IMG/VR virus record: IMGVR_UViG_2537561687_000016
Coordinates: 1 to 10,844 of that record
Strand: one strand, 5' to 3'
Source of the DNA: a virus
Taxonomy: Duplodnaviria > Heunggongvirae > Uroviricota > Caudoviricetes
DNA length: 10,844 bases
Notes under the pieces: generated by a model
The model's input: the letters and a program-made list of their open reading frames with translations, nothing else
What the model was told of the DNA's origin: nothing
Databases searched by the model: none
Translations under genes and position numbers: made by a program
Shown: piece by piece, positions 1 through 10,844 of the stretch
Layout: each line of letters opens with the position of its first letter
Numbering within the stretch: the first letter of the stretch is position 1

Positions 1-1170
1 ATGCCCCTAAATGATATGCAGATTCGCTGTGCTAAACCTGAAGCTAAAGCCTATACACTTGGGGATGGGCAAGGGCTGTCTTTACTTGTAGAGCCAAATG
101 GAAGTAAAAGCTGGCGATTTCGTTATCGCTATGCAGGTAAACCTAAAATGATCTCGCTTGGTGTCTATCCAACGATCACACTTGCTGAAGCTCGTTCCCG
201 TCGTGATGAGGCCCGAAAAATAGTGGCTGAGGGAAAAAACCCTAGTGAGGTACGAAAAGAGCAAAAACTAGCATTAAGAATTCAATCTGAGAATGCATTC
301 GAAAAGATTGCTAGAGAGTGGCATCGGATGAAGTCTTTAAAATGGTCTGCTGGGTACGCCTCGGATATTATGGAGGCGTTCCAGAACGATATTTTTCCGT
401 ATGTGGGAACTAGGCCTGTAGGAGAAATTAAACCGCTAGAGCTGTTAAATGTACTGCGTAAAATTGAGAAGCGTGGCGCATTGGAGAAAATGCGAAAAGT
501 ACGGCAACGTTGCTCAGAAGTTTTTCGATATGCCATTGCCACCGGAAGAGCAGAGTTTAATCCTGCCGCAGATCTGTCCAGTGCTCTCGAAGTACATAAA
601 TCAAATCATTTTCCATTCTTAAAATCAGATGAGATACCTGATTTTCTGCGTGCTTTAGAGCGCTATACAGGGAGTCGACTTGTCGTTATTGCTACGAAGT
701 TATTGATGATCACGGGAGTAAGAACCATCGAATTACGTACCGCATTATGGTCAGAATTTGATTTGGATAACGCTATTTGGGAAATTCCCGCTGAAAGAAT
801 GAAAATGCGCAGGTCACATCTTGTGCCATTGTCGACCCAAGCGTTAGATTTACTTAATGAACTCAAGATAATGACAGGGAACTATCGTTATGTTTTTCCG
901 GGGCGGAATGATCCGAAAAAGCCTATGAGTGAGGCGAGTATCAACCAAGTCATCAAACGTATCGGTTATAACGGGAGAGTGACGGGGCATGGATTTAGGC
1001 ACACATTGTCTACAATATTGCATGAAGAATGTTACGATTCTGCATGGATAGAGATGCAATTAGCTCATGTAGATAGAAATAATATACGTGGTACTTATAA
1101 TCATGCTCAATATTTAGAAAAAAGAATAAGCATGATGCAATGGTATTCAAATAAATTACTTGGTGAATAA
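1..1170 (+). CDS. int: P4-family tyrosine integrase (site-specific recombinase), 389 aa
   Basis: ORF starts at window position 1 (ATG). N-terminal MPLNDMQIRCAKP...GDGQGLSLLVEPNGSKSWRFRY resembles the P4/CP4-57 integrase arm-binding region. C-terminal catalytic region HGFRHT...LAHVDRNNIRGTYNHAQYLEKR carries the conserved R/H and the RGTY tyrosine. May be preceded by an att site/tRNA outside the window. Confidence 0.9.
   Translation: MPLNDMQIRCAKPEAKAYTLGDGQGLSLLVEPNGSKSWRFRYRYAGKPKMISLGVYPTITLAEARSRRDEARKIVAEGKNPSEVRKEQKLALRIQSENAFEKIAREWHRMKSLKWSAGYASDIMEAFQNDIFPYVGTRPVGEIKPLELLNVLRKIEKRGALEKMRKVRQRCSEVFRYAIATGRAEFNPAADLSSALEVHKSNHFPFLKSDEIPDFLRALERYTGSRLVVIATKLLMITGVRTIELRTALWSEFDLDNAIWEIPAERMKMRRSHLVPLSTQALDLLNELKIMTGNYRYVFPGRNDPKKPMSEASINQVIKRIGYNGRVTGHGFRHTLSTILHEECYDSAWIEMQLAHVDRNNIRGTYNHAQYLEKRISMMQWYSNKLLGE
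1074..1101 (+). promoter_or_regulatory. Candidate sigma70-type promoter embedded in the 3' end of int, possibly driving the cargo gene
   Basis: TATAAT at 1096-1101 with a weak -35-like TAGAAA at 1074-1079 (16-nt spacer). There is no intergenic space between int and the cargo (2 nt), so any dedicated promoter must lie inside int. Pattern match only. Confidence 0.25.
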
Positions 1171-1172
1171 TT

Positions 1173-3920
1173 ATGAATGTTGACATTAAACATTTTGAAC
1201 ACATTATTAAAGCTGCAGATGACAACTCACTAGCAATTTTTGTCGGAGCTGGGGTATCTAAATCAGCGGAGAATGATACAACCAAATTACCTACATGGTC
1301 AGATTTGATCGAAGAGTTAAAAATAGATCTTGGTATAACCTATGAATTAGATTACCTGAAAGTGGCACAATTATATTTTTTAGAATTTGGTCCTCATACT
1401 TACTATAAGAAAATCAAAAAGTATTTCCCTGACAATCTTGTTCCATCTAAAATACATGAATTAATTTTTGGGATAAATCCGCATTATGTAATTACTACAA
1501 ATTGGGATTGTCTGCTTGAGACTTCGATGTTAGAAAATGCATATATTTATGACTTGGTTTGCAGTGATCAGGATCTAATGAAATCAAGCCTTGATAAAAA
1601 ACTTATTAAAATGCATGGTGATTTCAAGAATCATAATATAGTTTTCAAAGAAGATGATTACATCAATTATGAATTTAATTTTCCATTGTTGTCGAATTAT
1701 ATAAAGAGCATATTATCAACTCACACAATAATTTTTATTGGCTATTCTTATAGTGATATTGATATTAAGCAAATAATAAAATGGGCTCAAAATCATACAT
1801 CGATACGCCCTCCAATGTATTTGTTGGTGTATGAAAATGACGTTGTGCAAAGTCGGTACTTAGCAAGTCATGGTGTGCAGACTCTCATGGCAGGAGATTA
1901 CAATGGTGGTGGGTATTCTGATTATCGAACTAACAAATTATATGGTTTTCTGAAGTCAGTAAAAGATAAAAAAGTTAGTAGTAGTGTTGATAAAAGTGTA
2001 ATTAATATTGTTTTTGCAAAGTTAGCAGAGCTTGGAACATTAAATGCAATATTAGCCGATCAGATTACTAGTTGTTTAGGTGAATGTTATATAGTTTATC
2101 GTGAGGTTGAAAATCGTCAGGTTGCATTATTAAAGTTCTATAGGAATGAAGCAACTCAGTTACAAAATGCAGAGCTCAGAGAAATTTATGCTAAATTTAA
2201 AAGAATTATAAAGACTAGCGATGATACAGGAGAGCATAGAAACTTACTTGGACCAATATTTGATATATTACAAAAAGCAGATATTGCTGGTGTAATCTGC
2301 GACGATGAAGACAAAGAAGCTGTTTTGACTCGTGATATGGCAACAACTCCTGTGAGAAAAAAAGCAGTTGAGGTTTTTAGGTTTGATTATAATAATAAAT
2401 TTGATTTTAGTAAAAAAAATAAATCAATTATGAATTTAAGCTTCGATAAAACAGATCCTTATCTATTTTATCAGCAATGTGATTTTGAAATGGCTTATCA
2501 TGCGGTTGATATTATAATTAAGCATGAGTTGAAGCATAAAAACTATGCCTCATTACTTATATCCCTTTTAAACCATAATATGATTTTACATGTTTTAAAA
2601 AATAGTTTTTTTCACAGGCGAGATAATTTCAGCGATTCAGAATCTTATGATATTAATGAGAGGTTTGACAACTTTCCAAAAAACGTGAAGAGATCACTAT
2701 CTACTTTGTTAGATATTGTTAATGTTGATTATATGTTCAAGTTTATACATTCTGTAGATAAGATACTAACAAAAAATAAAGATAGAGAAGATAAGAAGAC
2801 TTTTTTTTACTTGGATGCTGAAGAGTATAAAACTGATTTTGTTCATAAAAATATACTTTACTTCATAAAAGAAAATGGTTGTCTTGTTGATAACTATTCT
2901 GAGTTTAAATATGCTATTAATAAGATATTTGAGATAAAGGCTACAAAGCAAAAATCACAGGTAAATAATGATTCGATATTGTTTTCATTAGAGGAATTAT
3001 ACTCTGCAATTAAGTATTTAGAAAGTAATAGCCTTAAGGAAAAATTCAAATATAAAAAGAGAAATAAATATCTGAAGTTAGAATTAGATAGTGAAAGTGC
3101 AGAATGGTTGTTGAATCATGCTTTCAAGGAGTTGAGTCAGTTTTATAGAGAGAAAAAAGGAGTAGGTAATTATCATTTGGAGTCATTTAAAAATGCACTT
3201 TATCTTTTAGCCTTTTCTGATGAAAGCCATAATGATAAGGAATTGATTTATAGAGAGTTAATTGGCTTGGTTAGTGGTGATTACAATCAACTCGATTTTA
3301 TTGATTGCATTACTGAATATGTGACAATCTGTTTTAATAATAAAGGGAAGATAGATTTAGAGTTTATAAGAGGTTTGATGAATGGTTTGATTGAAAATTA
3401 TTCGTCATCAACAATTAAACAGAGACGCTACTTCAATAATATATTGAACTCTGCACGTAATATTTTCATCATTGCTAATGAGTTAGGTTTATCATTTGAT
3501 AATCATGTCTTATTGAAGCAATTATTATCGTCGGTAAATGATTGCGAATCTATCGAAAAAATTAGAACTGTAGAAACCATTATTTACGAACTTTTTATTG
3601 TTGGGGATGAACTGACTAAGAAAATGATAAAGGAGTTTATTAGTTTACTTGATATAGAACAATTTGGACACGATAAAAAAATCAAGTTTAAACTTTTTTT
3701 ATTGGCTGCTAGCATAATTGAAAAAGATGATCGTATAGCTAATGATACTCTTACTATGATTAAAAATTTATCCAAGAATAAATTTAGTTCGGAATTGTAC
3801 TCAATGAGAAATACACTCGAATTTTTAGTTAATAATAAAAAGATGCAGGAATTTTCTGAATCTTATGACGAAATAAAAAAAGTGATCTCACTTTTAGAAA
3901 ATAAATATCTAAGTCATTAA
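1173..3920 (+). CDS. SIR2-like (SIR2_2-type) domain protein, 915 aa, with large C-terminal domain of unknown function; candidate single-gene anti-phage defence protein (DSR-like)
   Basis: Complete ORF, ATG 1173 to TAA 3918-3920. N-terminal approx 230 aa show SIR2-like hallmarks: Rossmann FVGAGVSKS (res 23-31), TWSDL, ITTNWD with Asn110 (nt 1500-1502), KMHGD with His148 (nt 1614-1616), FIGYSYSDID (res 188-197). No Walker A or other catalytic motif seen in the remaining ~650 aa. Strongly AT-rich versus the flanking backbone. Confidence 0.75.
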   Translation: MNVDIKHFEHIIKAADDNSLAIFVGAGVSKSAENDTTKLPTWSDLIEELKIDLGITYELDYLKVAQLYFLEFGPHTYYKKIKKYFPDNLVPSKIHELIFGINPHYVITTNWDCLLETSMLENAYIYDLVCSDQDLMKSSLDKKLIKMHGDFKNHNIVFKEDDYINYEFNFPLLSNYIKSILSTHTIIFIGYSYSDIDIKQIIKWAQNHTSIRPPMYLLVYENDVVQSRYLASHGVQTLMAGDYNGGGYSDYRTNKLYGFLKSVKDKKVSSSVDKSVINIVFAKLAELGTLNAILADQITSCLGECYIVYREVENRQVALLKFYRNEATQLQNAELREIYAKFKRIIKTSDDTGEHRNLLGPIFDILQKADIAGVICDDEDKEAVLTRDMATTPVRKKAVEVFRFDYNNKFDFSKKNKSIMNLSFDKTDPYLFYQQCDFEMAYHAVDIIIKHELKHKNYASLLISLLNHNMILHVLKNSFFHRRDNFSDSESYDINERFDNFPKNVKRSLSTLLDIVNVDYMFKFIHSVDKILTKNKDREDKKTFFYLDAEEYKTDFVHKNILYFIKENGCLVDNYSEFKYAINKIFEIKATKQKSQVNNDSILFSLEELYSAIKYLESNSLKEKFKYKKRNKYLKLELDSESAEWLLNHAFKELSQFYREKKGVGNYHLESFKNALYLLAFSDESHNDKELIYRELIGLVSGDYNQLDFIDCITEYVTICFNNKGKIDLEFIRGLMNGLIENYSSSTIKQRRYFNNILNSARNIFIIANELGLSFDNHVLLKQLLSSVNDCESIEKIRTVETIIYELFIVGDELTKKMIKEFISLLDIEQFGHDKKIKFKLFLLAASIIEKDDRIANDTLTMIKNLSKNKFSSELYSMRNTLEFLVNNKKMQEFSESYDEIKKVISLLENKYLSH

Positions 3921-3984
3921 AGTAACTTTTATGATTTTTTATTATCGATAATTGCAGCAATTATAAGATGAGCGTTAGTGCGCA

Positions 3985-4003
3985 GTGCTTTCCCCGCCTC
4001 GCC
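3985..4003. other. cos site core (P2/P4-type 19-nt cohesive end sequence)
   Basis: GTGCTTTCCCCGCCTCGCC at 3985-4003 is the exact reverse complement of GGCGAGGCGGGGAAAGCAC, which I recall as the 19-nt cohesive end of P2/P4. Immediately followed by a GC-rich stem (4003-4008 pairing with 4017-4022) and TTTT. Confidence 0.7.
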
Positions 4004-4104
4004 CGCCCGCTTTGCGGGGCGGTTTTAATGCAGTTGCACTGACACGCTCAGGCCGTGCCGGGCGTGGCCTGGTATACAGAAAATGAGGCAGGAAAACGCA
4101 TGCA

Positions 4105-4137
4105 AAGCCATGCACCTTATCGATGCATGGCTTTTTT
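4105..4137 (+). terminator. Rho-independent terminator-like hairpin (plus-strand orientation)
   Basis: AAGCCATGCA (4105-4114) pairs with TGCATGGCTT (4124-4133), 9-nt loop, followed by a T-run (4132-4137). Lies between cos and the 3' end of psu, positioned to stop read-through from the int/cargo side. Confidence 0.5.
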
Positions 4138-4167
4138 CAGTAAAAACGGGCGGATTTTCGGGGAATT

Positions 4168-4740
4168 TTACACAGACTGACGTGATGCCAGTTGCGCACT
4201 TTTACGCGAAAAAATCATGTTCTGCGCAGGAGTGAATTTTTCACGGCTGTCATCCACCGAAGCCGCGTCAGGCCTGAATCCGATGGTCGTTAAAATGTCG
4301 CTATCCTGTGCGGAATAATTAATTTTTTCACCCTTCGCAAGCCAGGACAGAAGGGCTTCACGCAGGGCATCTGTGGCACGCTGTATGGCACAGTTTCGGG
4401 CAATGGCCGTCAGCTCACTGTAGCCCATCAGCTCCGGTGCCAGTGCCGCCGCCAGTGCTGTGCCGTGCTGCTGCATAAAATCATTCAGCCGGTCGCGGAT
4501 GCTGATGTGCTGAACGGCTTCATGCGAACGAATATAACGACCGGCGGCCTGATTCACCTGCCATTTTCTGACTTCGATAATATTGCGTAATTCGTCCAGG
4601 CGACTGACGTTTCTGCCTTCTCCTGACAGAAGCCGCAGATATTCCTGTTCGGCCGCTGCCAGCTCATTTTTGCGTTGCAGCCATGCTGCTTTGTTATTCT
4701 GACAGGTGTCAAAGGCCTGCTGTAAGGCTGTGCTTTCCAT
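4168..4740 (-). CDS. psu: Psu-like polarity suppression / capsid decoration protein, 190 aa
   Basis: 190-aa ORF, same length as P4 Psu; N-terminus MESTALQQAFDTCQNNKAAWLQRKNELAAAEQEY matches my recollection of P4 Psu. Last gene of the minus-strand sid-delta-psu operon. Confidence 0.85.
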   Translation of the reverse strand: MESTALQQAFDTCQNNKAAWLQRKNELAAAEQEYLRLLSGEGRNVSRLDELRNIIEVRKWQVNQAAGRYIRSHEAVQHISIRDRLNDFMQQHGTALAAALAPELMGYSELTAIARNCAIQRATDALREALLSWLAKGEKINYSAQDSDILTTIGFRPDAASVDDSREKFTPAQNMIFSRKSAQLASRQSV

Positions 4741-4813
4741 CGTTATCTCTTTCTCATCATGCTGAAGAATAAAAATACGGTGTGCGGCGACGGCCGGTGT
4801 TAACCGGCAGCCC

Positions 4814-5314
4814 TCATTCCAGACGCAGCGAATATGATTGTGTTTTTAACCGTACTGGCGGCAGTTCCTGTTTTTCATGCAGGCGTTCTGCCAGTTCGTC
4901 CGGCGTGACCGGGCGGACAATGAAGCGGTTGATGGTCTGAAGCGTTTTAAACACCAGACCACAGCCCGGATCCGTGCACACATAAAAACGCTCGGTGACT
5001 TCCTGAGACAGACGCCGCGATGTTCTTGACAGTGCAAGGCCTTTACATCTCCGACAACAATATCCGGTAACAAGCATTCTTTTCGGGCGTTTCATACTGC
5101 CGGAGGCTGACGTCAGTGAATCGCGGTATCTCTGTTTGCCTGAAATGTATTCCATTCCTGAATCTTTACTGTCAGAGAAAAAGCTTTCACTCGCTTCAAA
5201 TGTCGCAGAGCAATAAATATTCCGGCACTGTGCAATCATTATCTTGGTGCCATCGTCCATGAAATGTGCGCGACGGGTGTGAGCAACATGTCCACACGAC
5301 GGGCAGTAAATCAT
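4814..5314 (-). CDS. delta: Delta-like late transcriptional activator (tandem Ogr-type zinc fingers), 166 aa
   Basis: 166 aa, same length as P4 Delta. Two Cys-rich Ogr-like modules (MIYCPSCGH...C...C and CRRC...CTDPGCG). Start codon overlaps the sid stop (ATGA at 5311-5314). Confidence 0.85.
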   Translation of the reverse strand: MIYCPSCGHVAHTRRAHFMDDGTKIMIAQCRNIYCSATFEASESFFSDSKDSGMEYISGKQRYRDSLTSASGSMKRPKRMLVTGYCCRRCKGLALSRTSRRLSQEVTERFYVCTDPGCGLVFKTLQTINRFIVRPVTPDELAERLHEKQELPPVRLKTQSYSLRLE

Positions 5315-6044
5315 GACAGCAGTCCTCTGGCCTTAAGCTCTGCTCCCTGCTGGTCTATTTTGTCCTGCCACACCTTGCGCTGTGCCGGTGTGCCTGCCAC
5401 CTCATAATCCATGTGCGGGAGTGTTGCCGCTGACAGTCCGGTCAGCCGGAGAACCGGCTCGCCGGTGAGGCTGATTTGCATCTGTTTAATTTTCTGTTCC
5501 AGCGATGATTTCACCTGCTGCATGACAGCCTTTTCCGGTGCGACGTAGCCCTGATGGCCGGTGGTGTTGGCGAGCGGATTTTCCTGTACCAGAATGCTCA
5601 GATGCATTGCCCGGACAAGCGCCTCACAGGTTTCATTCAGGGCGTGTTCCAGCTCATGCTCTGCATACAGACTCAGAAGGTGATGATGTGCCTTCCGGTA
5701 GGCGGTGGCCGTGCTGTCACACGCCCCTTTCAGGCGTTCCGTTCAAAATTCAGCACCACGGCCAGATTGTCATATTCCTGTACCAGCTCCCGGCGTGCCA
5801 CGCGCTCAATGTGGCGCTGTTTCAGCTCGTCGCTCAGGACACCACCGGCTGCACGAAAGGCCGTGCGCCAGTCGTCAGCGTCGTTTCCGTCGGCCTGCGC
5901 CAGCGCATTTTTTTCCTGCTCTGCCCGTTCAATGGCCGTGACGGTCTCATCCATCAGGCGGGCGTTCTCAAGATGGGCGGCTCTGGCCTTTTCCAGTTGT
6001 GCCAGTGCGGGTTGCAGATATTCAGGGATGGTGTTGTCAGACAT
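5311..6044 (-). pseudogene. sid: sid-like capsid size determination gene with an apparent 1-nt frameshift (two ORF fragments)
   Basis: N-terminal fragment (ATG at 6044-6042 with AGGAG RBS, to TGA at 5732-5730) begins MSDNTIPEYLQPALAQLEKARAAH. C-terminal fragment continues in another frame to TGA at 5313-5311. Total span 734 nt, one short of the 735 nt needed for a 244-aa Sid plus stop. Frame switch lies around 5725-5740. Confidence 0.6.
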
Positions 6045-6116
6045 TTTCCGGCTCCTCGTCACTTCAGGTTAAGAAAATTGTGACGTACACCGGACAACAA
6101 CACGACGCATTGCAGA

Positions 6117-6134
6117 TGTGCCAGCCCTGACACA
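6117..6134 (-). promoter_or_regulatory. TGT-N12-ACA dyad, candidate Delta/Ogr activator site of the leftward late promoter (P_sid-like)
   Basis: TGTGCCAGCCCTGACACA at 6117-6134. Centre is about 80 bp upstream of the sid ATG (6044), compatible with the roughly -55 position of Ogr/Delta sites at P2/P4 late promoters. Confidence 0.5.
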
Positions 6135-6213
6135 GGAGACTCATCCTCAGACCGGCAAGCCAGGAAAAGGTCGCAGGAAAAACCGGCTTACTGTTTGTTT
6201 TTTTATATTTTAC

Positions 6214-6317
6214 TGTTCACCTCTGTTCACCATAAGAAAAAAGATAAGTAATACAGTAAGTTAAAGGGTGAACAATCGCAGTAATGACTGTTCACCGTCT
6301 GTTCACCACTGTTCACC
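6214..6317. repeat. Iteron array: five direct copies and one inverted copy of TGTTCACC, candidate alpha-binding replication origin (P4 ori-like)
   Basis: Direct copies at 6214-6221, 6224-6231, 6289-6296, 6300-6307, 6310-6317 (spacing 10-11 bp); inverted copy GGTGAACA at 6267-6274. TGTTCACC is, as I recall, the type I iteron bound by P4 alpha at ori and crr. Array lies about 4.7 kb upstream of the projected alpha 3' end. Confidence 0.6.
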
Positions 6318-6420
6318 CGCTGATGGACTTTTTGTGCTGTTTACTACTGTTTGTTTTTATTAATTCGCCGTGAATGAATAAGAAGAAACGATTTGTATTT
6401 CACTATAAAAATTACGAATT

Positions 6421-6450
6421 GCTTTAAGTGGCTTTAAATGACTTTAAGTG
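6421..6450. repeat. Three tandem 10-bp repeats (GCTTTAAGTG / GCTTTAAATG / ACTTTAAGTG), candidate regulator binding sites
   Basis: Perfectly contiguous decamers with 1-2 mismatches, about 27 bp upstream of the rightward TGT-N12-ACA dyad. Function unknown. Confidence 0.4.
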
Positions 6451-6476
6451 GAGATGAACAAAAAACACACAGCCAT

Positions 6477-6494
6477 TGTAAGGCTGCCGGAACA
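6477..6494 (+). promoter_or_regulatory. TGT-N12-ACA dyad, candidate Delta/Ogr activator site of the rightward late promoter (P_LL-like) upstream of vis
   Basis: TGTAAGGCTGCCGGAACA at 6477-6494; centre about 110 bp upstream of the vis ATG (6597). Confidence 0.45.
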
Positions 6495-6596
6495 AATCCC
6501 CCCTGTTGCGTCTGCCAAAAATATTCACAAAATAAAGCGCTACCCGAAGCCGGACGGACTTATCCGGTGCTGTATGGACATTAACGAGGTAGCCCG

Positions 6597-6863
6597 ATGC
6601 AAGCTGTTTTTTCTTCCCCGTCTCCCGCCCCTGTGACGCCACTGATGCCGCTGCCGGACATCACGCAGGAGCGTTTTTTACGTCTGCCGGAAGTGATGCA
6701 CCTGTGCGGCCTGTCACGCTCGACCATCTACGAACTCATCCGTAAGGGGGAATTTCCGCCGCAGGTGAGTCTTGGCGGTAAAAATGTGGCCTGGCTGCAC
6801 TCTGAAGTCACCGCATGGATGGCCGGACGCATTGCCGGACGCAAACGGGGGTACGACGCATGA
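6597..6863 (+). CDS. vis: Vis-like (AlpA-family) small HTH DNA-binding regulator/excisionase, 88 aa
   Basis: 88 aa, same length as P4 orf88 (Vis). HTH-like core [27 protein letters not shown] typical of AlpA/Vis regulators. GAGG RBS at 6586-6589. Confidence 0.8.
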
Positions 6864-6898
6864 TGATGCCCGCTCTGCAAAAACTCCCTTTTTCTGGC

Positions 6899-6928
6899 TT
6901 GCCTTTTTCCGGCATTTGCGGATATAGT
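6899..6928 (+). promoter_or_regulatory. Candidate sigma70 promoter (P_LE-like) for the immunity/early operon
   Basis: TTGCCT (6899-6904), 18-nt spacer, TATAGT (6923-6928). A perfect 7-bp hairpin follows at 6935-6954 (GCTGCCG / CGGCAGC). Pattern match only. Confidence 0.35.
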
Positions 6929-7249
6929 TTTTCCGCTGCCGCAAAATCGGCAGCCGGGCGTGAGAACCCGAGTAAGTCAAAGGCGACATATGACGCGCCA
7001 TGCGTCTTTTTTTGTGTCGCAATCAACGCCACAGAGCGCCAGATTATGGTGTGGCGTGTGGTTTGCCGTGCAGGTATGATCCTGTTCGCAATCGCATGTT
7101 ATGCCACTGAGTCAATGGTAGCTCAGGCGGGGCAGCCTCCGGGCTGGCCGGTATCCTATGACGCCGGTATTCTCACCCCCGTCTGGGCTATCGCCATCGA
7201 GCGTGAGAACTCCGGCGATAGCGTTATTTGCTACTCAGGAGGCTGCCTT

Positions 7250-7447
7250 ATGGCTACAACCCTTACCCCCTCACACCCTGAATTTGTCTTTGTGTTTGCG
7301 GCTGTCCGTCGCGCAGACCGTCATCCCCGTATCTGCATGCTTCGCACCGTCGCCGGTGATGAACGCAGCGCCCGCCGTTCCCTTGTCCGTGACTATGTGC
7401 TCTCCCTTGCTGCCCGTCTGCCGGTGGTGGAGGTGTCCCGTGCGTAA
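7250..7447 (+). CDS. Small hypothetical protein of the P4-like early operon, 65 aa
   Basis: ATG at 7250 preceded by AGGAGG (7236-7241). This is the 3' 65 codons of the 210-aa track ORF, whose upstream part overlaps vis, the promoter and structured leader and is unlikely to be coding. Identity not recognised. Confidence 0.45.
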
Positions 7448-7727
7448 TAAAAAAGCCCCTCAGACCGTCTCAGCACGTCATGACGCCCGTGAACACCTCA
7501 GCATTGAGGCTTACCATAAGCTCAACCGCGCCAGCGCCGTATCCCAGTTTGTTGGGGGTGATTTGATTCACCGTGAACTCTCCGGCCTGCATCAGCTCTA
7601 CATTCCGCATATTTTCAGCTACCTGAATGAAGATATTGATTTTGTGCTGAATGAGCTGAAAGCCAAAGGCCTGTGCCGCGATTTTCTCGCCCAGCAGAAA
7701 GACCGGGGAGACAGGACGCATGTTTGA
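7440..7727 (+). CDS. Small protein, 95 aa, possible epsilon-like helper derepression protein (tentative)
   Basis: GTG at 7440 preceded by GGAGGTG. Overlaps the previous stop by 8 nt and ends in ATGtttTGA overlap with the next gene. 95 aa fits my uncertain recollection of P4 epsilon. An in-frame ATG at 7395 without RBS is an alternative start. Confidence 0.4.
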
Positions 7728-8175
7728 TTTTCCCCAGCCCGGTGAGATTTACCGTTCTGCCGGTTTTCCCGATGTGGCCGTGGTCGGCATTCTGGAAGAC
7801 GGTATTCCGTGGGAAATGCCGTACCGCTGCCCGGACATTGTCTGGAACCCGTACCGCCGTAAATTCAGTATCCTTGTGCGTATCCTCGCTGACGGGCGCA
7901 CCACAGACATCCCGCTGGGGCGTTTTCTGCGGGAATTTACCTGTGACCGTCCTGACCTGTTTAAACGCAGCCCCGTAAACCGGCATGCGGTACTGAAAGA
8001 AATGGCCGGAGACCCGGAATTACAGAAATGGCGGGAGAAATATCTGGATATTTACCCGCAGGACACTGTTCCGGTCAGCCGGGCAGCACCGGTGGCGCGG
8101 GAATGGCGGGAAATTCCCCGCACGGAGCCTGACCCGGAAACCACCCCGGATAACAGTTACCGCAATTATCTGTAA
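7720..8175 (+). CDS. P4 orf151-like hypothetical protein, 151 aa
   Basis: 151-aa ORF immediately upstream of the alpha region, with GGGGAG RBS. Length and position match P4 orf151. Function unknown. Confidence 0.7.
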   Translation: MFDFPQPGEIYRSAGFPDVAVVGILEDGIPWEMPYRCPDIVWNPYRRKFSILVRILADGRTTDIPLGRFLREFTCDRPDLFKRSPVNRHAVLKEMAGDPELQKWREKYLDIYPQDTVPVSRAAPVAREWREIPRTEPDPETTPDNSYRNYL

Positions 8176-8310
8176 TTAAAAAACGACACCCGAAAAATTA
8201 AATGTGCGTATTCGCGCAGGGATACGCACGTCTTCAGGAGACGCAGATATGCCTTATCAGTTAATGCAACCGGCACGGAATGCAGTCATCTGTCACAGGG
8301 AGGAAAGCAA

Positions 8311-8631
8311 ATGAAAACACCCTTACCGCCCGTCTTACGCGCTGCCCTTTACCGTCGCGCTGTCGCCTGTGCCTGGCTGACCGTGTGCGAACGTCAGCAC
8401 CGCTACCCGCATCTCACCCTTGAATCACTGGAGGCGGCCATCGCCGCTGAGCTGGAAGGCTTTTATCTGCGCCAGCACGGTGAGGAAAAAGGGCGTCAGA
8501 TAGCCTGTGCCCTGCTGGAAGATTTAATGGAATCCGGCCCCCTGAAGGCCGCGCCGTCGCTGTCCTTTCTCGGGCTGGTTGTGATGGATGAACTCTGTGC
8601 CCGTCACATAAAAGCGCCGGTACTGCACTGA
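8311..8631 (+). CDS. P4 orf106-like hypothetical protein, 106 aa
   Basis: 106-aa ORF with GGAGG RBS (8298-8302), ending 14 nt before the alpha start. Length matches the P4 orf106 name; position assignment is from memory and uncertain. Confidence 0.6.
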
Positions 8632-8645
8632 AGGAGAACAACACC

Positions 8646-10844
8646 ATGAAAATGAACGTAACCGCCACCGTCAGCCATGCGCTCGGCCACTGGCCGCGTA
8701 TTCTCCCGGCGCTGGGGATTCAGGTGCTGAAAAACCGTCATCAGCCCTGTCCGGTCTGTGGCGGGAGTGACCGCTTCCGTTTTGATGACAGGGAGGGGCG
8801 CGGCACCTGGTACTGCAATCAGTGTGGTGCCGGTGACGGCCTGAAACTGGTTGAAAAGGTGTTTGGTGTTTCCCCGTCCGACGCGGCCGCAAAGGTGGCT
8901 GCCGTGACCGGCAGCCTGCCCCCGGCTGACCCGGCAGTGACGGCTGCCGCCGGTGCTGAAACAGACGCTGCCCGGAAGAACGCCGCCGCACTGGCACAAA
9001 CCCTGATGGCAAAAACCCGTCCCGGAACCGGTAACGCCTACCTGACCCGCAAGGGCTTTCCCGGCCGGGAATGCCGGATGCTGACCGGCACACACAGAGC
9101 CGGTGGCGTGAGCTGGCGCGCCGGTGACCTTGTGGTGCCACTGTATGACGACAGCGGCGAACTGGTTAACCTTCAGTTAATCAGTGCTGACGGCCGTAAG
9201 CGCACCCTGAAAGGCGGACAGGTCAGGGGCACCTGTCACACCCTTGAAGGACAGAATCAGGCCGGAAAACGTCTGTGGATAGCGGAGGGATACGCGACCG
9301 CACTTACCGTACATCACCTGACCGGTGAAACGGTGATGGTGGCGCTTTCTTCCGTGAACCTCCTTTCTCTGGCCAGCCTTGCCCGGCAGAAGCATCCGGC
9401 CTGTCAGATTGTCCTTGCCGCAGACCGTGACCTCAGCGGTGACGGCCAGAAAAAAGCCGCCGCAGCCGCAGATGCGTGTGAGGGCGTTGTTGCCCTGCCG
9501 CCGGTCTTCGGTGACTGGAATGATGCCTTCACGCAGTACGGCGGGGAGGCCACCCGTAAGGCCATTTACGATGCCATCCGGCCACCGGCTGAAAGCCCGT
9601 TCGACACCATGAGCGAAGCAGAGTTTTCCGCCATGAGTACCAGCGAAAAGGCCATGCGTATCTATGAGCATTACGGCGAGGCGCTCGCGGTCGATGCCAA
9701 CGGCCAGCTTCTGTCCCGTTATGAAAATGGTGTCTGGAAGGTGCTGCCGCCACAGGACTTTGCCCGGGATGTGGCCGGGCTGTTTCAGCGTCTGCGCGCG
9801 CCGTTCTCCTCCGGGAAGGTGGCCTCCGTGGTGGACACCCTGAAGCTGATTATTCCGCAGCAGGAAGCCCCCTCCCGCCGCCTGATTGGCTTTCGTAACG
9901 GCGTGCTCGACACGCAGAACGGCACGTTCCACCCGCACAGTCCGTCACACTGGATGCGCACCCTGTGCGATGTGGATTTCACCCCGCCGGTGGACGGTGA
10001 AACGCTGGAAACCCACGCCCCCGCGTTCTGGCGCTGGCTTGACCGTGCCGCCGGTGGCCGTGCGGAAAAACGCGACGTGATTCTGGCCGCACTGTTTATG
10101 GTGCTGGCAAACCGCTACGACTGGCAGCTCTTTCTGGAGGTGACCGGTCCCGGCGGCAGCGGCAAAAGTATCATGGCCGAAATAGCCACCCTGCTGGCCG
10201 GGGAGGATAACGCCACGTCGGCCACCATTGAGACGCTGGAATCCCCGCGTGAACGTGCCGCGTTAACTGGCTTCTCACTGATACGCCTGCCGGACCAGGA
10301 AAAATGGAGCGGCGACGGTGCCGGACTCAAGGCCATCACCGGCGGCGATGCGGTGTCCGTGGACCCGAAATACCGGGATGCGTACTCCACGCATATCCCG
10401 GCGGTGATTCTGGCCGTGAACAATAACCCGATGCGCTTCACCGACCGCAGCGGCGGCGTGTCACGCCGGCGGGTGATTATTCACTTCCCGGAACAGATAG
10501 CCCCGCAGGAGCGCGACCCGCAGCTTAAGGACAAAATCACCCGCGAGCTGGCGGTCATCGTGCGTCACCTGATGCAGAAGTTCAGCGACCCGATGCTCGC
10601 CCGGTCACTGCTTCAGTCCCAGCAGAACTCAGACGAGGCGCTGAACATCAAACGGGATGCCGACCCGACGTTTGATTTTATCGGCTATCTGGAAACCCTG
10701 CCGCAGACCAGCGGCATGTATATGGGGAACGCCAGTATCATCCCGCGTAATTACCGTAAATACCTCTATCACGCCTATCTGGCTTACATGGAGGCAAACG
10801 GCTACCGGAATGTACTCAGTCTGAAAATGTTCGGGCTGGGGCTG
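8646..10844 (+). CDS. alpha: Alpha-like primase-helicase (zinc-binding N-terminus, Toprim primase, D5/SF3-type helicase), 3'-partial (733 codons in window)
   Basis: ATG 8646 with AAGGAG RBS. I translated the frame by hand over the N-terminal ~280 codons and the last ~250 codons and found no stop; the middle section was not checked codon by codon. This ORF is absent from the supplied track, presumably because it has no stop within the window. Motifs: CPVCGGSDRFRFDDREGRGTWYCNQCG, Toprim-like WIAEGYATALTV and VLAADRDLSGDG, Walker A GPGGSGKS (approx 10146-10169). P4 alpha is 777 aa as I recall, so about 44 codons are missing. Confidence 0.9.
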   Translation, partial: MKMNVTATVSHALGHWPRILPALGIQVLKNRHQPCPVCGGSDRFRFDDREGRGTWYCNQCGAGDGLKLVEKVFGVSPSDAAAKVAAVTGSLPPADPAVTAAAGAETDAARKNAAALAQTLMAKTRPGTGNAYLTRKGFPGRECRMLTGTHRAGGVSWRAGDLVVPLYDDSGELVNLQLISADGRKRTLKGGQVRGTCHTLEGQNQAGKRLWIAEGYATALTVHHLTGETVMVALSSVNLLSLASLARQKHPACQIVLAADRDLSGDGQKKAAAAADACEGVVALPPVFGDWNDAFTQYGGEATRKAIYDAIRPPAESPFDTMSEAEFSAMSTSEKAMRIYEHYGEALAVDANGQLLSRYENGVWKVLPPQDFARDVAGLFQRLRAPFSSGKVASVVDTLKLIIPQQEAPSRRLIGFRNGVLDTQNGTFHPHSPSHWMRTLCDVDFTPPVDGETLETHAPAFWRWLDRAAGGRAEKRDVILAALFMVLANRYDWQLFLEVTGPGGSGKSIMAEIATLLAGEDNATSATIETLESPRERAALTGFSLIRLPDQEKWSGDGAGLKAITGGDAVSVDPKYRDAYSTHIPAVILAVNNNPMRFTDRSGGVSRRRVIIHFPEQIAPQERDPQLKDKITRELAVIVRHLMQKFSDPMLARSLLQSQQNSDEALNIKRDADPTFDFIGYLETLPQTSGMYMGNASIIPRNYRKYLYHAYLAYMEANGYRNVLSLKMFGLGL

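Follow-up and report, generated by a model that had tools for sequence, protein, structure and literature searches.

In a P4-like satellite, the 3' end of the integrase gene appears to be inherited with a DSR2-like SIR2 gene in a cassette that ends at cos

P4-like phage satellites carry a hotspot of defence systems between the integrase gene int and cos/psu (Rousset et al. 2022, PMC9122126; re-analysed by Moura de Sousa et al. 2026, PMC13586616). Both of these main P4/P2 hotspot papers describe the mechanism of the very fast swapping of defence systems as unknown: the first speculated that the cos end and a second homologous recombination exchange the locus (PMC9122126), and the second left the swap to 'a presumably different mechanism' (PMC13586616). 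What, then, is the unit that is exchanged, and where are its edges? We addressed this question on a stretch of 10,844 nucleotides (nt) of viral DNA, IMG/VR record IMGVR_UViG_2537561687_000016 (the window), which starts at the ATG of int. We read it, with a probability of about 0.8, as a P4-like satellite integrating at thrW/proA, in which nt ~1000-3980 form the int-to-cos defence hotspot and hold one DSR2-like SIR2 gene (the cargo). The island, its position and the cargo protein are already in the literature; the new detail is a left cassette edge that comparison of relatives places inside int.

Relatives with the same int family (81-95% nt identity, E. coli, mostly at tRNA-Thr by proA) carry eight unrelated cargo types in this slot in eleven elements. 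These comprise a Gabija-like nuclease with a UvrD helicase, an ORC/CDC6 ATPase, a HEPN protein, a reverse transcriptase with a hypothetical protein, DRT3, an AAA plus HNH pair, an ABC-three-component system and a reverse-oriented hypothetical gene. Homology in the flanks is lost past nt ~1149 and found again from ~3979, delimiting a variable gene set between int and cos/psu. Around this segment, the P4 core genes int, psu, delta, alpA-like, DUF5375 and primase were found in P4 order (Pfam and annotation of relatives), with sid, an Icd-like gene, epsilon-type genes and the alpha primase taken from the annotation of the near-identical E. coli elements L003 and L111. Relatives of int adjoin tRNA-Thr/proA.

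The island is also distinct in composition. An earlier note on this DNA had described an AT-rich cargo and spacer against a GC-rich backbone, and an AT-rich stretch in the last ~150 nt of int. Measured G+C content (GC) bore out both statements, with 28.9% in the cargo (1173-3920), 25.5% in nt 3921-3975 and 29.3% in int 1021-1170, as compared with 56.3% in nt 3985-10844. The drop is real, but a two-level picture is too simple: int 1-1000, at 43.8%, already lies below the backbone, which makes three levels. Maximum-likelihood change points in GC fell at nt 1004 (43.8% to 30.6%) and nt 3969 (26.9% to 54.1%), and GC at third codon positions was 0.37 in int 1-960, 0.26 in int 961-1167, 0.25 in the cargo and 0.55 in psu. 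The drop in the int tail is a property of the family, mean GC falling from ~0.46 to 0.33-0.37 past nt ~990 in 36/36 relatives. Since this AT-richness occurs in all relatives, composition alone is no proof of foreign origin; the evidence for linkage of int to cargo, drawn from alignments, is comparative rather than compositional.

For this comparison, int and downstream sequence were aligned in 36 unique elements whose integrases share at least 80% amino acid (aa) identity. Compared with an element that has Gabija-like cargo (L001), the window shows 98.3% identity up to nt 909, falling to 76.9% beyond it, and 98-100% identity in int 1-750. The same break pattern was found in L006/L009, L010/L011 and L002/L005. 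Over 602 pairs with different cargo, mean identity was 86.5% in int 1-900 and 70.4% in int 961-1148, and the 11 such pairs that are at least 97% identical in int 1-900 reached only 62.8-76.6% in int 961-1148. Elements sharing a cargo gave the reverse pattern. The Salmonella enterica element L110, located at proA/thrW and carrying the same SIR2 gene, is 83.6% identical to the window in int 1-900 (81-84% in int 1-750), 96.3% in int 901-1170 and 96.8% in the cargo, with an identity change point near nt 752. Likewise, identity between L027 and L075 is 54-69% in int 1-1000, rising to 79-85% in the stretch from nt ~1000 to the end of the cargo. In the 28 same-cargo pairs, cargo identity correlated with int 3' identity at r = 0.99 and with int 5' identity at r = 0.60.

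An exchange boundary inside the int 3' end, as the earlier note had proposed, is thus supported, since a given cargo comes with one and the same int 3' end on different int backbones. Next to other cargo the int 3' ends are not identical (~63-78%), despite 97-100% identity in nt 1-900. The proposed location in the last ~150 nt of int was correct as to the gene, but the linkage block begins further upstream, with crossovers at nt ~750-1000. We conclude from these alignments that the last 200-400 nt of int, together with the stop codon and the cargo's ribosome-binding site, are inherited with the cargo.

Could the cargo instead have been inserted at a fixed point at or after the int stop, with the divergent AT-rich tail being a family-wide property of int, that is, a fast-evolving C-terminus with AT-biased codons? 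The tail is indeed homologous coding sequence with conserved catalytic motifs, and its GC drop past nt ~990 is present in all 36 relatives, those with reverse-oriented cargo included. However, rate variation cannot yield 99-100% identity over 900 nt followed by 72-77% over the next 190 nt. It also leaves unexplained why same-cargo pairs show the opposite, with 83-95% identity in the 5' part of int and 97-100% in the 3' part, and why int 3' identity correlates almost perfectly with cargo identity. We consider fixed-point insertion very improbable.

Linkage of the int 3' end to the cargo thus remains our preferred reading, and the position of the breaks bears on how such linkage might arise. In addition to nt 752 (window/L110) and 909 (window/L001), change points were placed at 814, 834, 900, 936, 948 and 972 in other pairs and at ~1000 in L027/L075. 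Their scatter fits homologous recombination rather than a fixed site. Some results weigh against our overall reading: the change points, spread over ~250 nt, mark no dedicated recombination site; the pair statistics count related sequences and not independent events; the AT-richness of the int tail is shared by relatives with reverse-oriented cargo; and no Chi site (GCTGGTGG, either strand) is present in the window to guide RecBCD from the cos end. The swapped int segment is 70-78% aa identical between cassettes, and HGFRH (box II), LAHVD and RGTYNH (catalytic Tyr) are conserved in all int variants. Because these catalytic motifs are kept, chimeric integrases are probably functional.

Two IMG/VR contigs, L027 and L075, have the same 316-aa cargo and int tail behind integrases that are ~60% identical in nt 1-1000. 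A third, L080, has an int tail as in L027 but diverges from it downstream, so that another breakpoint may lie immediately after int in that contig.

The int TAA (1168-1170) and the cargo ATG (1173) are separated by a gap of 2 nt. The open reading frame (ORF) coordinates therefore agree with the earlier note's view that the junction has no room for an intergenic promoter. Such tight junctions are the norm: in 47 of 76 unique elements a co-oriented ORF of at least 100 aa starts within 45 nt of the int stop, most of these starts lying between -17 and +12 relative to it. Junctions of relatives range from overlaps of 4-17 nt to gaps of at most ~12 nt, with ATGA-type overlaps in L002 and others. Alignment of all relatives stops after the codons QWYS (nt 1138-1149). 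Past this point the cassettes differ from one another: the last 5-18 codons of int, its stop and a GGAG-like motif ahead of the cargo are particular to each, and int is 1164 to 1227 nt long in the relatives. In the window, a Shine-Dalgarno (SD)-like GGTGA (1162-1166) lies within the last int codons, 6 nt ahead of the cargo ATG. The cassette thus includes the six final codons of int with their stop, and the ribosome-binding site of the cargo.

At the other edge, elements that differ in cargo become similar again from 'gcgca' on, 5-7 nt short of the cos 19-mer, and homology among elements and to P2 and P4 starts at 3973-3980. The island pointed out in the earlier note ends at nt 3984, the base preceding this 19-mer. 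The cos region is 96% identical to that of P4 and 89-95% identical to those of P2-like phages, and is thus a P2-type cos shared with helpers. A hairpin inside this region (Table 1) is kept in E. coli relatives and in the P2 cos region of Rousset Table S2 (PMC9122126), and might double as terminator of an int/cargo transcript.

With both edges placed, a route of exchange can be proposed. The exchanged unit is larger than the cargo ORF: its left end is inside int, and its right end stops 5-7 nt short of the cos cleavage sequence. Besides the cargo it takes in the 3' end of int, which encodes box II and the catalytic Tyr, through to the final codons and stop, and the ribosome-binding site of the cargo. 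Since its edge is only a few nt from the cos cleavage sequence, the cassette would sit at the very end of the packaged linear DNA. Cassettes would most likely be swapped between P4-like elements by homologous recombination, with one crossover at nt ~750-1000, where int is better conserved, and the other junction on the conserved cos/psu side or at the cos end itself. Crossovers nearer the cargo would be rare because cassette-linked int tails differ by 22-37%, so that the int tail would stay linked to the cargo. A bolder version is possible, though on balance we doubt it: the int 3' end would be a functional adaptor that brings its own promoter and ribosome-binding site and whose catalytic-motif patches dock 'int tail + cargo' into different integrase families, as in L027/L075. 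Together with the cos end, such an adaptor would allow cassette exchange by one crossover.

How is a cargo with no promoter of its own between genes expressed? Expression must begin upstream of nt 1173. The earlier note's two alternatives, co-transcription with int and a promoter inside int, are logically sound: transcripts would either read through from int's promoter or start in the cassette-linked int tail. Translation would use the cargo's own SD (GGTGA), possibly coupled to int termination. In the first case int and cargo would form an operon whose int promoter, upstream of the window, gives the only transcript of the cargo, and translation of the cargo would be coupled to the end of int. 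The 2-nt gap, the overlapping or short-gap junctions of relatives and the SD inside the last int codons all fit this arrangement, and a + strand scan found no terminator-like site between the int start and cos. Against it, a defence gene needs steady expression, whereas P4 int is autoregulated; a simple scan of the L111 sequence found no convincing + strand promoter upstream of int; and the unusually AT-rich int tail could hold internal promoters. We would give such an operon somewhat less than an even chance.

In the second case a promoter inside int (TAGAAA-N16-TATAAT) would drive the cargo constitutively and independently of int regulation, which, if true, would explain why the cassette carries the int tail. 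This site is the best + strand consensus match in nt 1-4300 (10/12) and lies ~70 nt ahead of the cargo ATG, within the AT-rich segment linked to the cassette. Its -35 hexamer, however, is poor, and its TATAAT (1096-1101), which the earlier note had located correctly as a promoter candidate, consists of the codons for Tyr and Asn in the catalytic RGTYNH motif; its presence is accounted for by protein coding. TATAAT was found in 29/76 relatives, the other 47/76 having TATAAC, TACAAC or TACAAT. It was somewhat commoner with co-oriented cargo across all 76 elements (22/47 vs 7/29 otherwise, p = 0.056, a comparison confounded by clade), and no link to orientation was seen in the close int family (13/28 vs 4/5, p = 0.34). 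Conservation of TATAAT was for these reasons, free synonymous variation and no clear link to orientation, rejected as evidence for a promoter, and the promoter role suggested for it is weak. Promoter-like sites in nt 1-4300 were not enriched either (23 vs 18.9 +/- 5.2 in shuffles). Clones of co-oriented cargo made by Rousset et al. begin at the int RGTYNH motif (PMC9122126) and therefore give no test of a promoter spanning 1074-1101. Taken together, we consider a dedicated promoter inside int rather unlikely, and read-through from the int promoter somewhat more likely than an internal promoter in the AT-rich int tail.

The cargo is the protein called in NZ_CP025916 (L113), RefSeq WP_001552601, which is listed eight times in Rousset Table S1A as P4 locus 'SIR2_2' (PMC9122126). 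The SIR2 gene tested in that study (pFR88, from E. coli M605) encodes a different protein, unrelated in sequence (PMC9122126), and we found no record of WP_001552601 having been tested. A phmmer search against the Protein Data Bank (PDB) matched aa 8-293 to the SIR2 domain of DSR2, residues 30-325 (E 2.7e-32). The catalytic residues N110 and H148 are both conserved, lining up with DSR2 N133 and H171 respectively, and are invariant in 33 homologues. The remainder was compared by structure. An AlphaFold2 model based on the homologue alignment (mean predicted local distance difference test score 81.5, predicted template modelling score 0.66) is mostly helical over aa ~250-915. In a Foldseek search of this model against the PDB, the top 44 matches were all DSR2 chains (970-1060 aligned columns, template modelling (TM) score 0.52-0.66, 16-17% identity), and the best superpositions of the predicted structure extended over the full length at TM 0.62-0.66.

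Set against a kinship with DSR2 are the absence of a significant phmmer match to DSR2 outside the SIR2 domain (domains 2 and 3 not significant), an overall identity of only 16-17%, and the absence of a DSR2-specific model among the PADLOC matches, which were limited to ThsA-type, PDC-S25, PDC-S65 and Aga_SIR2 models. The ThsA models match the SIR2 domain alone (E 1e-27, aa 9-206), and an NCBIfam search returned no family. The cargo is thus best named DSR2-like, in that it combines a predicted DSR2 architecture with the DSR2 catalytic residues, with no membership by whole-protein sequence. A reading as Thoeris was rejected: the match to ThsA is confined to the SIR2 part, a SLOG domain is absent, and the hotspot holds a single gene, with no ThsB/TIR gene beside it. 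By analogy with DSR2, the helical C-terminal region may sense a phage structural protein, upon which NAD+ would be hydrolysed and infection aborted.

It might also be asked whether the cargo is a housekeeping-type sirtuin, a protein deacylase that is passively carried and plays no part in defence. Pfam and RefSeq give only 'SIR2 family', and no experimental test of this protein was found. However, the predicted fold matches full-length DSR2 rather than deacetylase sirtuins; the slot in relatives holds Gabija-like genes, DRT3, retron-type reverse transcriptases and similar systems; and the cargo family repeatedly abuts P4-type integrases, which together make a housekeeping role extremely unlikely. 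All homologues examined at 39-60% aa identity (Salmonella, Citrobacter, Edwardsiella and metagenomes) abut or overlap a P4-type int or lie a few nt from it. More distant homologues, at 34-37% aa identity, come from Bacteroidota and other metagenome-assembled genomes, and no int, psu or other P4 genes flank them. Full-length homologues at 32-37% aa identity (L016, L017 and L019-L022), likewise lacking P4 genes in their flanks, are found in Bacteroidota, Flammeovirga, Algoriphagus, Adhaeribacter and Arcobacter genomes, low-GC hosts that fit the 29% GC of the cargo.

Table 1. Features of the window, by nt position
Feature	Position	Strand	Basis
int, P4-type tyrosine integrase, 389 aa, intact	1-1170	+	Pfam Arm-DNA-bind_3, Phage_int_M, Phage_integrase
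int 5' part, inherited with satellite backbone or att specificity rather than with cargo	1-750	+	
Putative zone of cargo-swapping crossovers	750-1000	+	Maximum-likelihood identity change points
int 3' segment with box II HxxR and catalytic Tyr, co-inherited with cargo; AT-rich	961-1149	+	Homologous in all relatives
Candidate sigma-70 promoter TAGAAA-16-TATAAT (weak)	1074-1101	+	
Cassette-specific int end, last 6 codons (NKLLGE) and stop	1150-1170	+	Alignment of relatives
Cargo, single-gene DSR2-like SIR2 protein, 915 aa	1173-3920	+	Pfam SIR2_2
SIR2 NADase domain, cargo aa 8-293	1194-2051	+	Pfam, sequence match to DSR2
Mostly alpha-helical C-terminal region (predicted), aa 294-915, equivalent to DSR2 sensor region	2052-3917	+	Model and superposition
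AT-rich cassette-specific spacer 3' of cargo stop	3921-3978	+	No similarity to elements with other cargo
Right cassette edge: conserved tgcgca, then P2/P4 cos 19-mer GTGCTTTCCCCGCCTCGCC (3985-4003)	3979-4003		
G+C-rich hairpin then TTTTAAT, inside cos region	4003-4022	+	Sole terminator-like site downstream of int and cargo
psu, first backbone gene past cos	4168-4740	-	Pfam Psu, E 1.3e-88; 96% identical to P4
Ogr/Delta gene	4814-5314	-	Pfam Ogr_Delta
AlpA-like gene	6597-6863	+	Pfam Phage_AlpA
DUF5375 gene	8311-8631	+	Pfam

The window was also compared with E. coli 120899 (NZ_CP025916). Full identity to it was rejected: nt 1-4300 agree except for one single-nucleotide mismatch, and the whole window is 99.15% identical, with a few indels. 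At nt 918 the window has A and all other copies have C, the sole difference within int and cargo, which changes Int Asn306 to Lys. In E. coli 120899 (L003 1-12000, L113) the satellite does not lie directly at tRNA-Thr; lambdoid tail-fibre genes, a GIY-YIG gene and an AraC regulator are found upstream, so that a prophage and the satellite may occupy the thrW site in tandem. In some E. coli genomes (L114, L116 and L118) the identical int and SIR2 pair is kept, psu, delta, sid, alpA and alpha are gone, and ecpR and ykgM/ykgO follow directly after the pair. These are decayed satellites that keep the integrase and the defence gene only.

Two further observations concern the backbone. On the - strand, sid (5311-6062) is split into ORFs 5311-5607 and 5730-6062 by a 1-nt deletion (G missing) after nt 5739, as compared with the near-identical L111 and L113. 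It is either a pseudogene or a sequencing error; if the frameshift is real, the window copy would be unable to redirect P2 capsid size. Between sid and the alpA-like gene, nt 6201-6500 form a second AT-rich dip (34-37% GC). Within it, nt 6320-6470 differ from L111 by ~40 mismatches and two indels, the remaining backbone being ~99.5% identical. From its sequence the dip looks like a second exchanged segment, probably the promoter/immunity region.

Placing both edges makes the proposal of a 'cos end plus one homologous crossover' testable. It also has consequences for work on the hotspot: extraction by gene boundaries, from int to psu, loses the true left end of the cassette; phylogenies of P4-like integrases are confounded by a 3' segment linked to cargo; and 'native promoter' clones of co-oriented cargo must include part of int. 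The cargo itself would add an enterobacterial, satellite-borne branch to the DSR2-like sirtuins.

How does this locus compare with known systems? The P4 hotspot papers (PMC9122126, PMC13586616) deal with the same element type, the same slot beside cos and the same variety of defence systems in similar satellites; they set the hotspot by gene boundaries, whereas here the left edge was mapped inside int. In the literature searched, no statement was found of breakpoints within int or of an int 3' end travelling with cargo, which is not proof that none has been published. Canonical P4 (NC_001609; int-cII-beta-gop) shares the int-to-cos position and a first gene after int, cII, that is co-oriented; it differs in its 66-nt int-cII gap, its int lineage and its cargo. 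In logic only, the locus resembles the C-terminal displacement cassettes of type VI secretion systems. In Vibrio cholerae, effector-immunity replacement reportedly brings in new cargo with the 3' end of a conserved upstream gene by homologous recombination. Here, unlike in those cassettes, the upstream gene is an integrase with a catalytic C-terminus and not a delivery adaptor, and the other boundary is a packaging site.

At the protein level, the SIR2 domain of the cargo matches the PADLOC models and PDB structures of Thoeris ThsA (SIR2-SLOG); unlike ThsA, the cargo has no SLOG domain and no adjacent ThsB/TIR gene, and its C-terminal 620 aa are predicted to be helical and DSR2-like. A 'single ThsA' candidate was tested in the 2026 Nucleic Acids Research paper. 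DSR2 of Bacillus subtilis (PDB 8k98, 8wyb, 8z18 and others) is closer: both are single polypeptides of ~900-1000 aa with an N-terminal SIR2 domain and the conserved Asn/His, and in the model the helical C-terminal region of the cargo takes part in the full-length superposition. The cargo differs in being 16-17% identical, 90 aa shorter, from Enterobacterales and satellite-borne. DSR2 itself forms a tetramer, is triggered by a tail tube protein and depletes NAD+.

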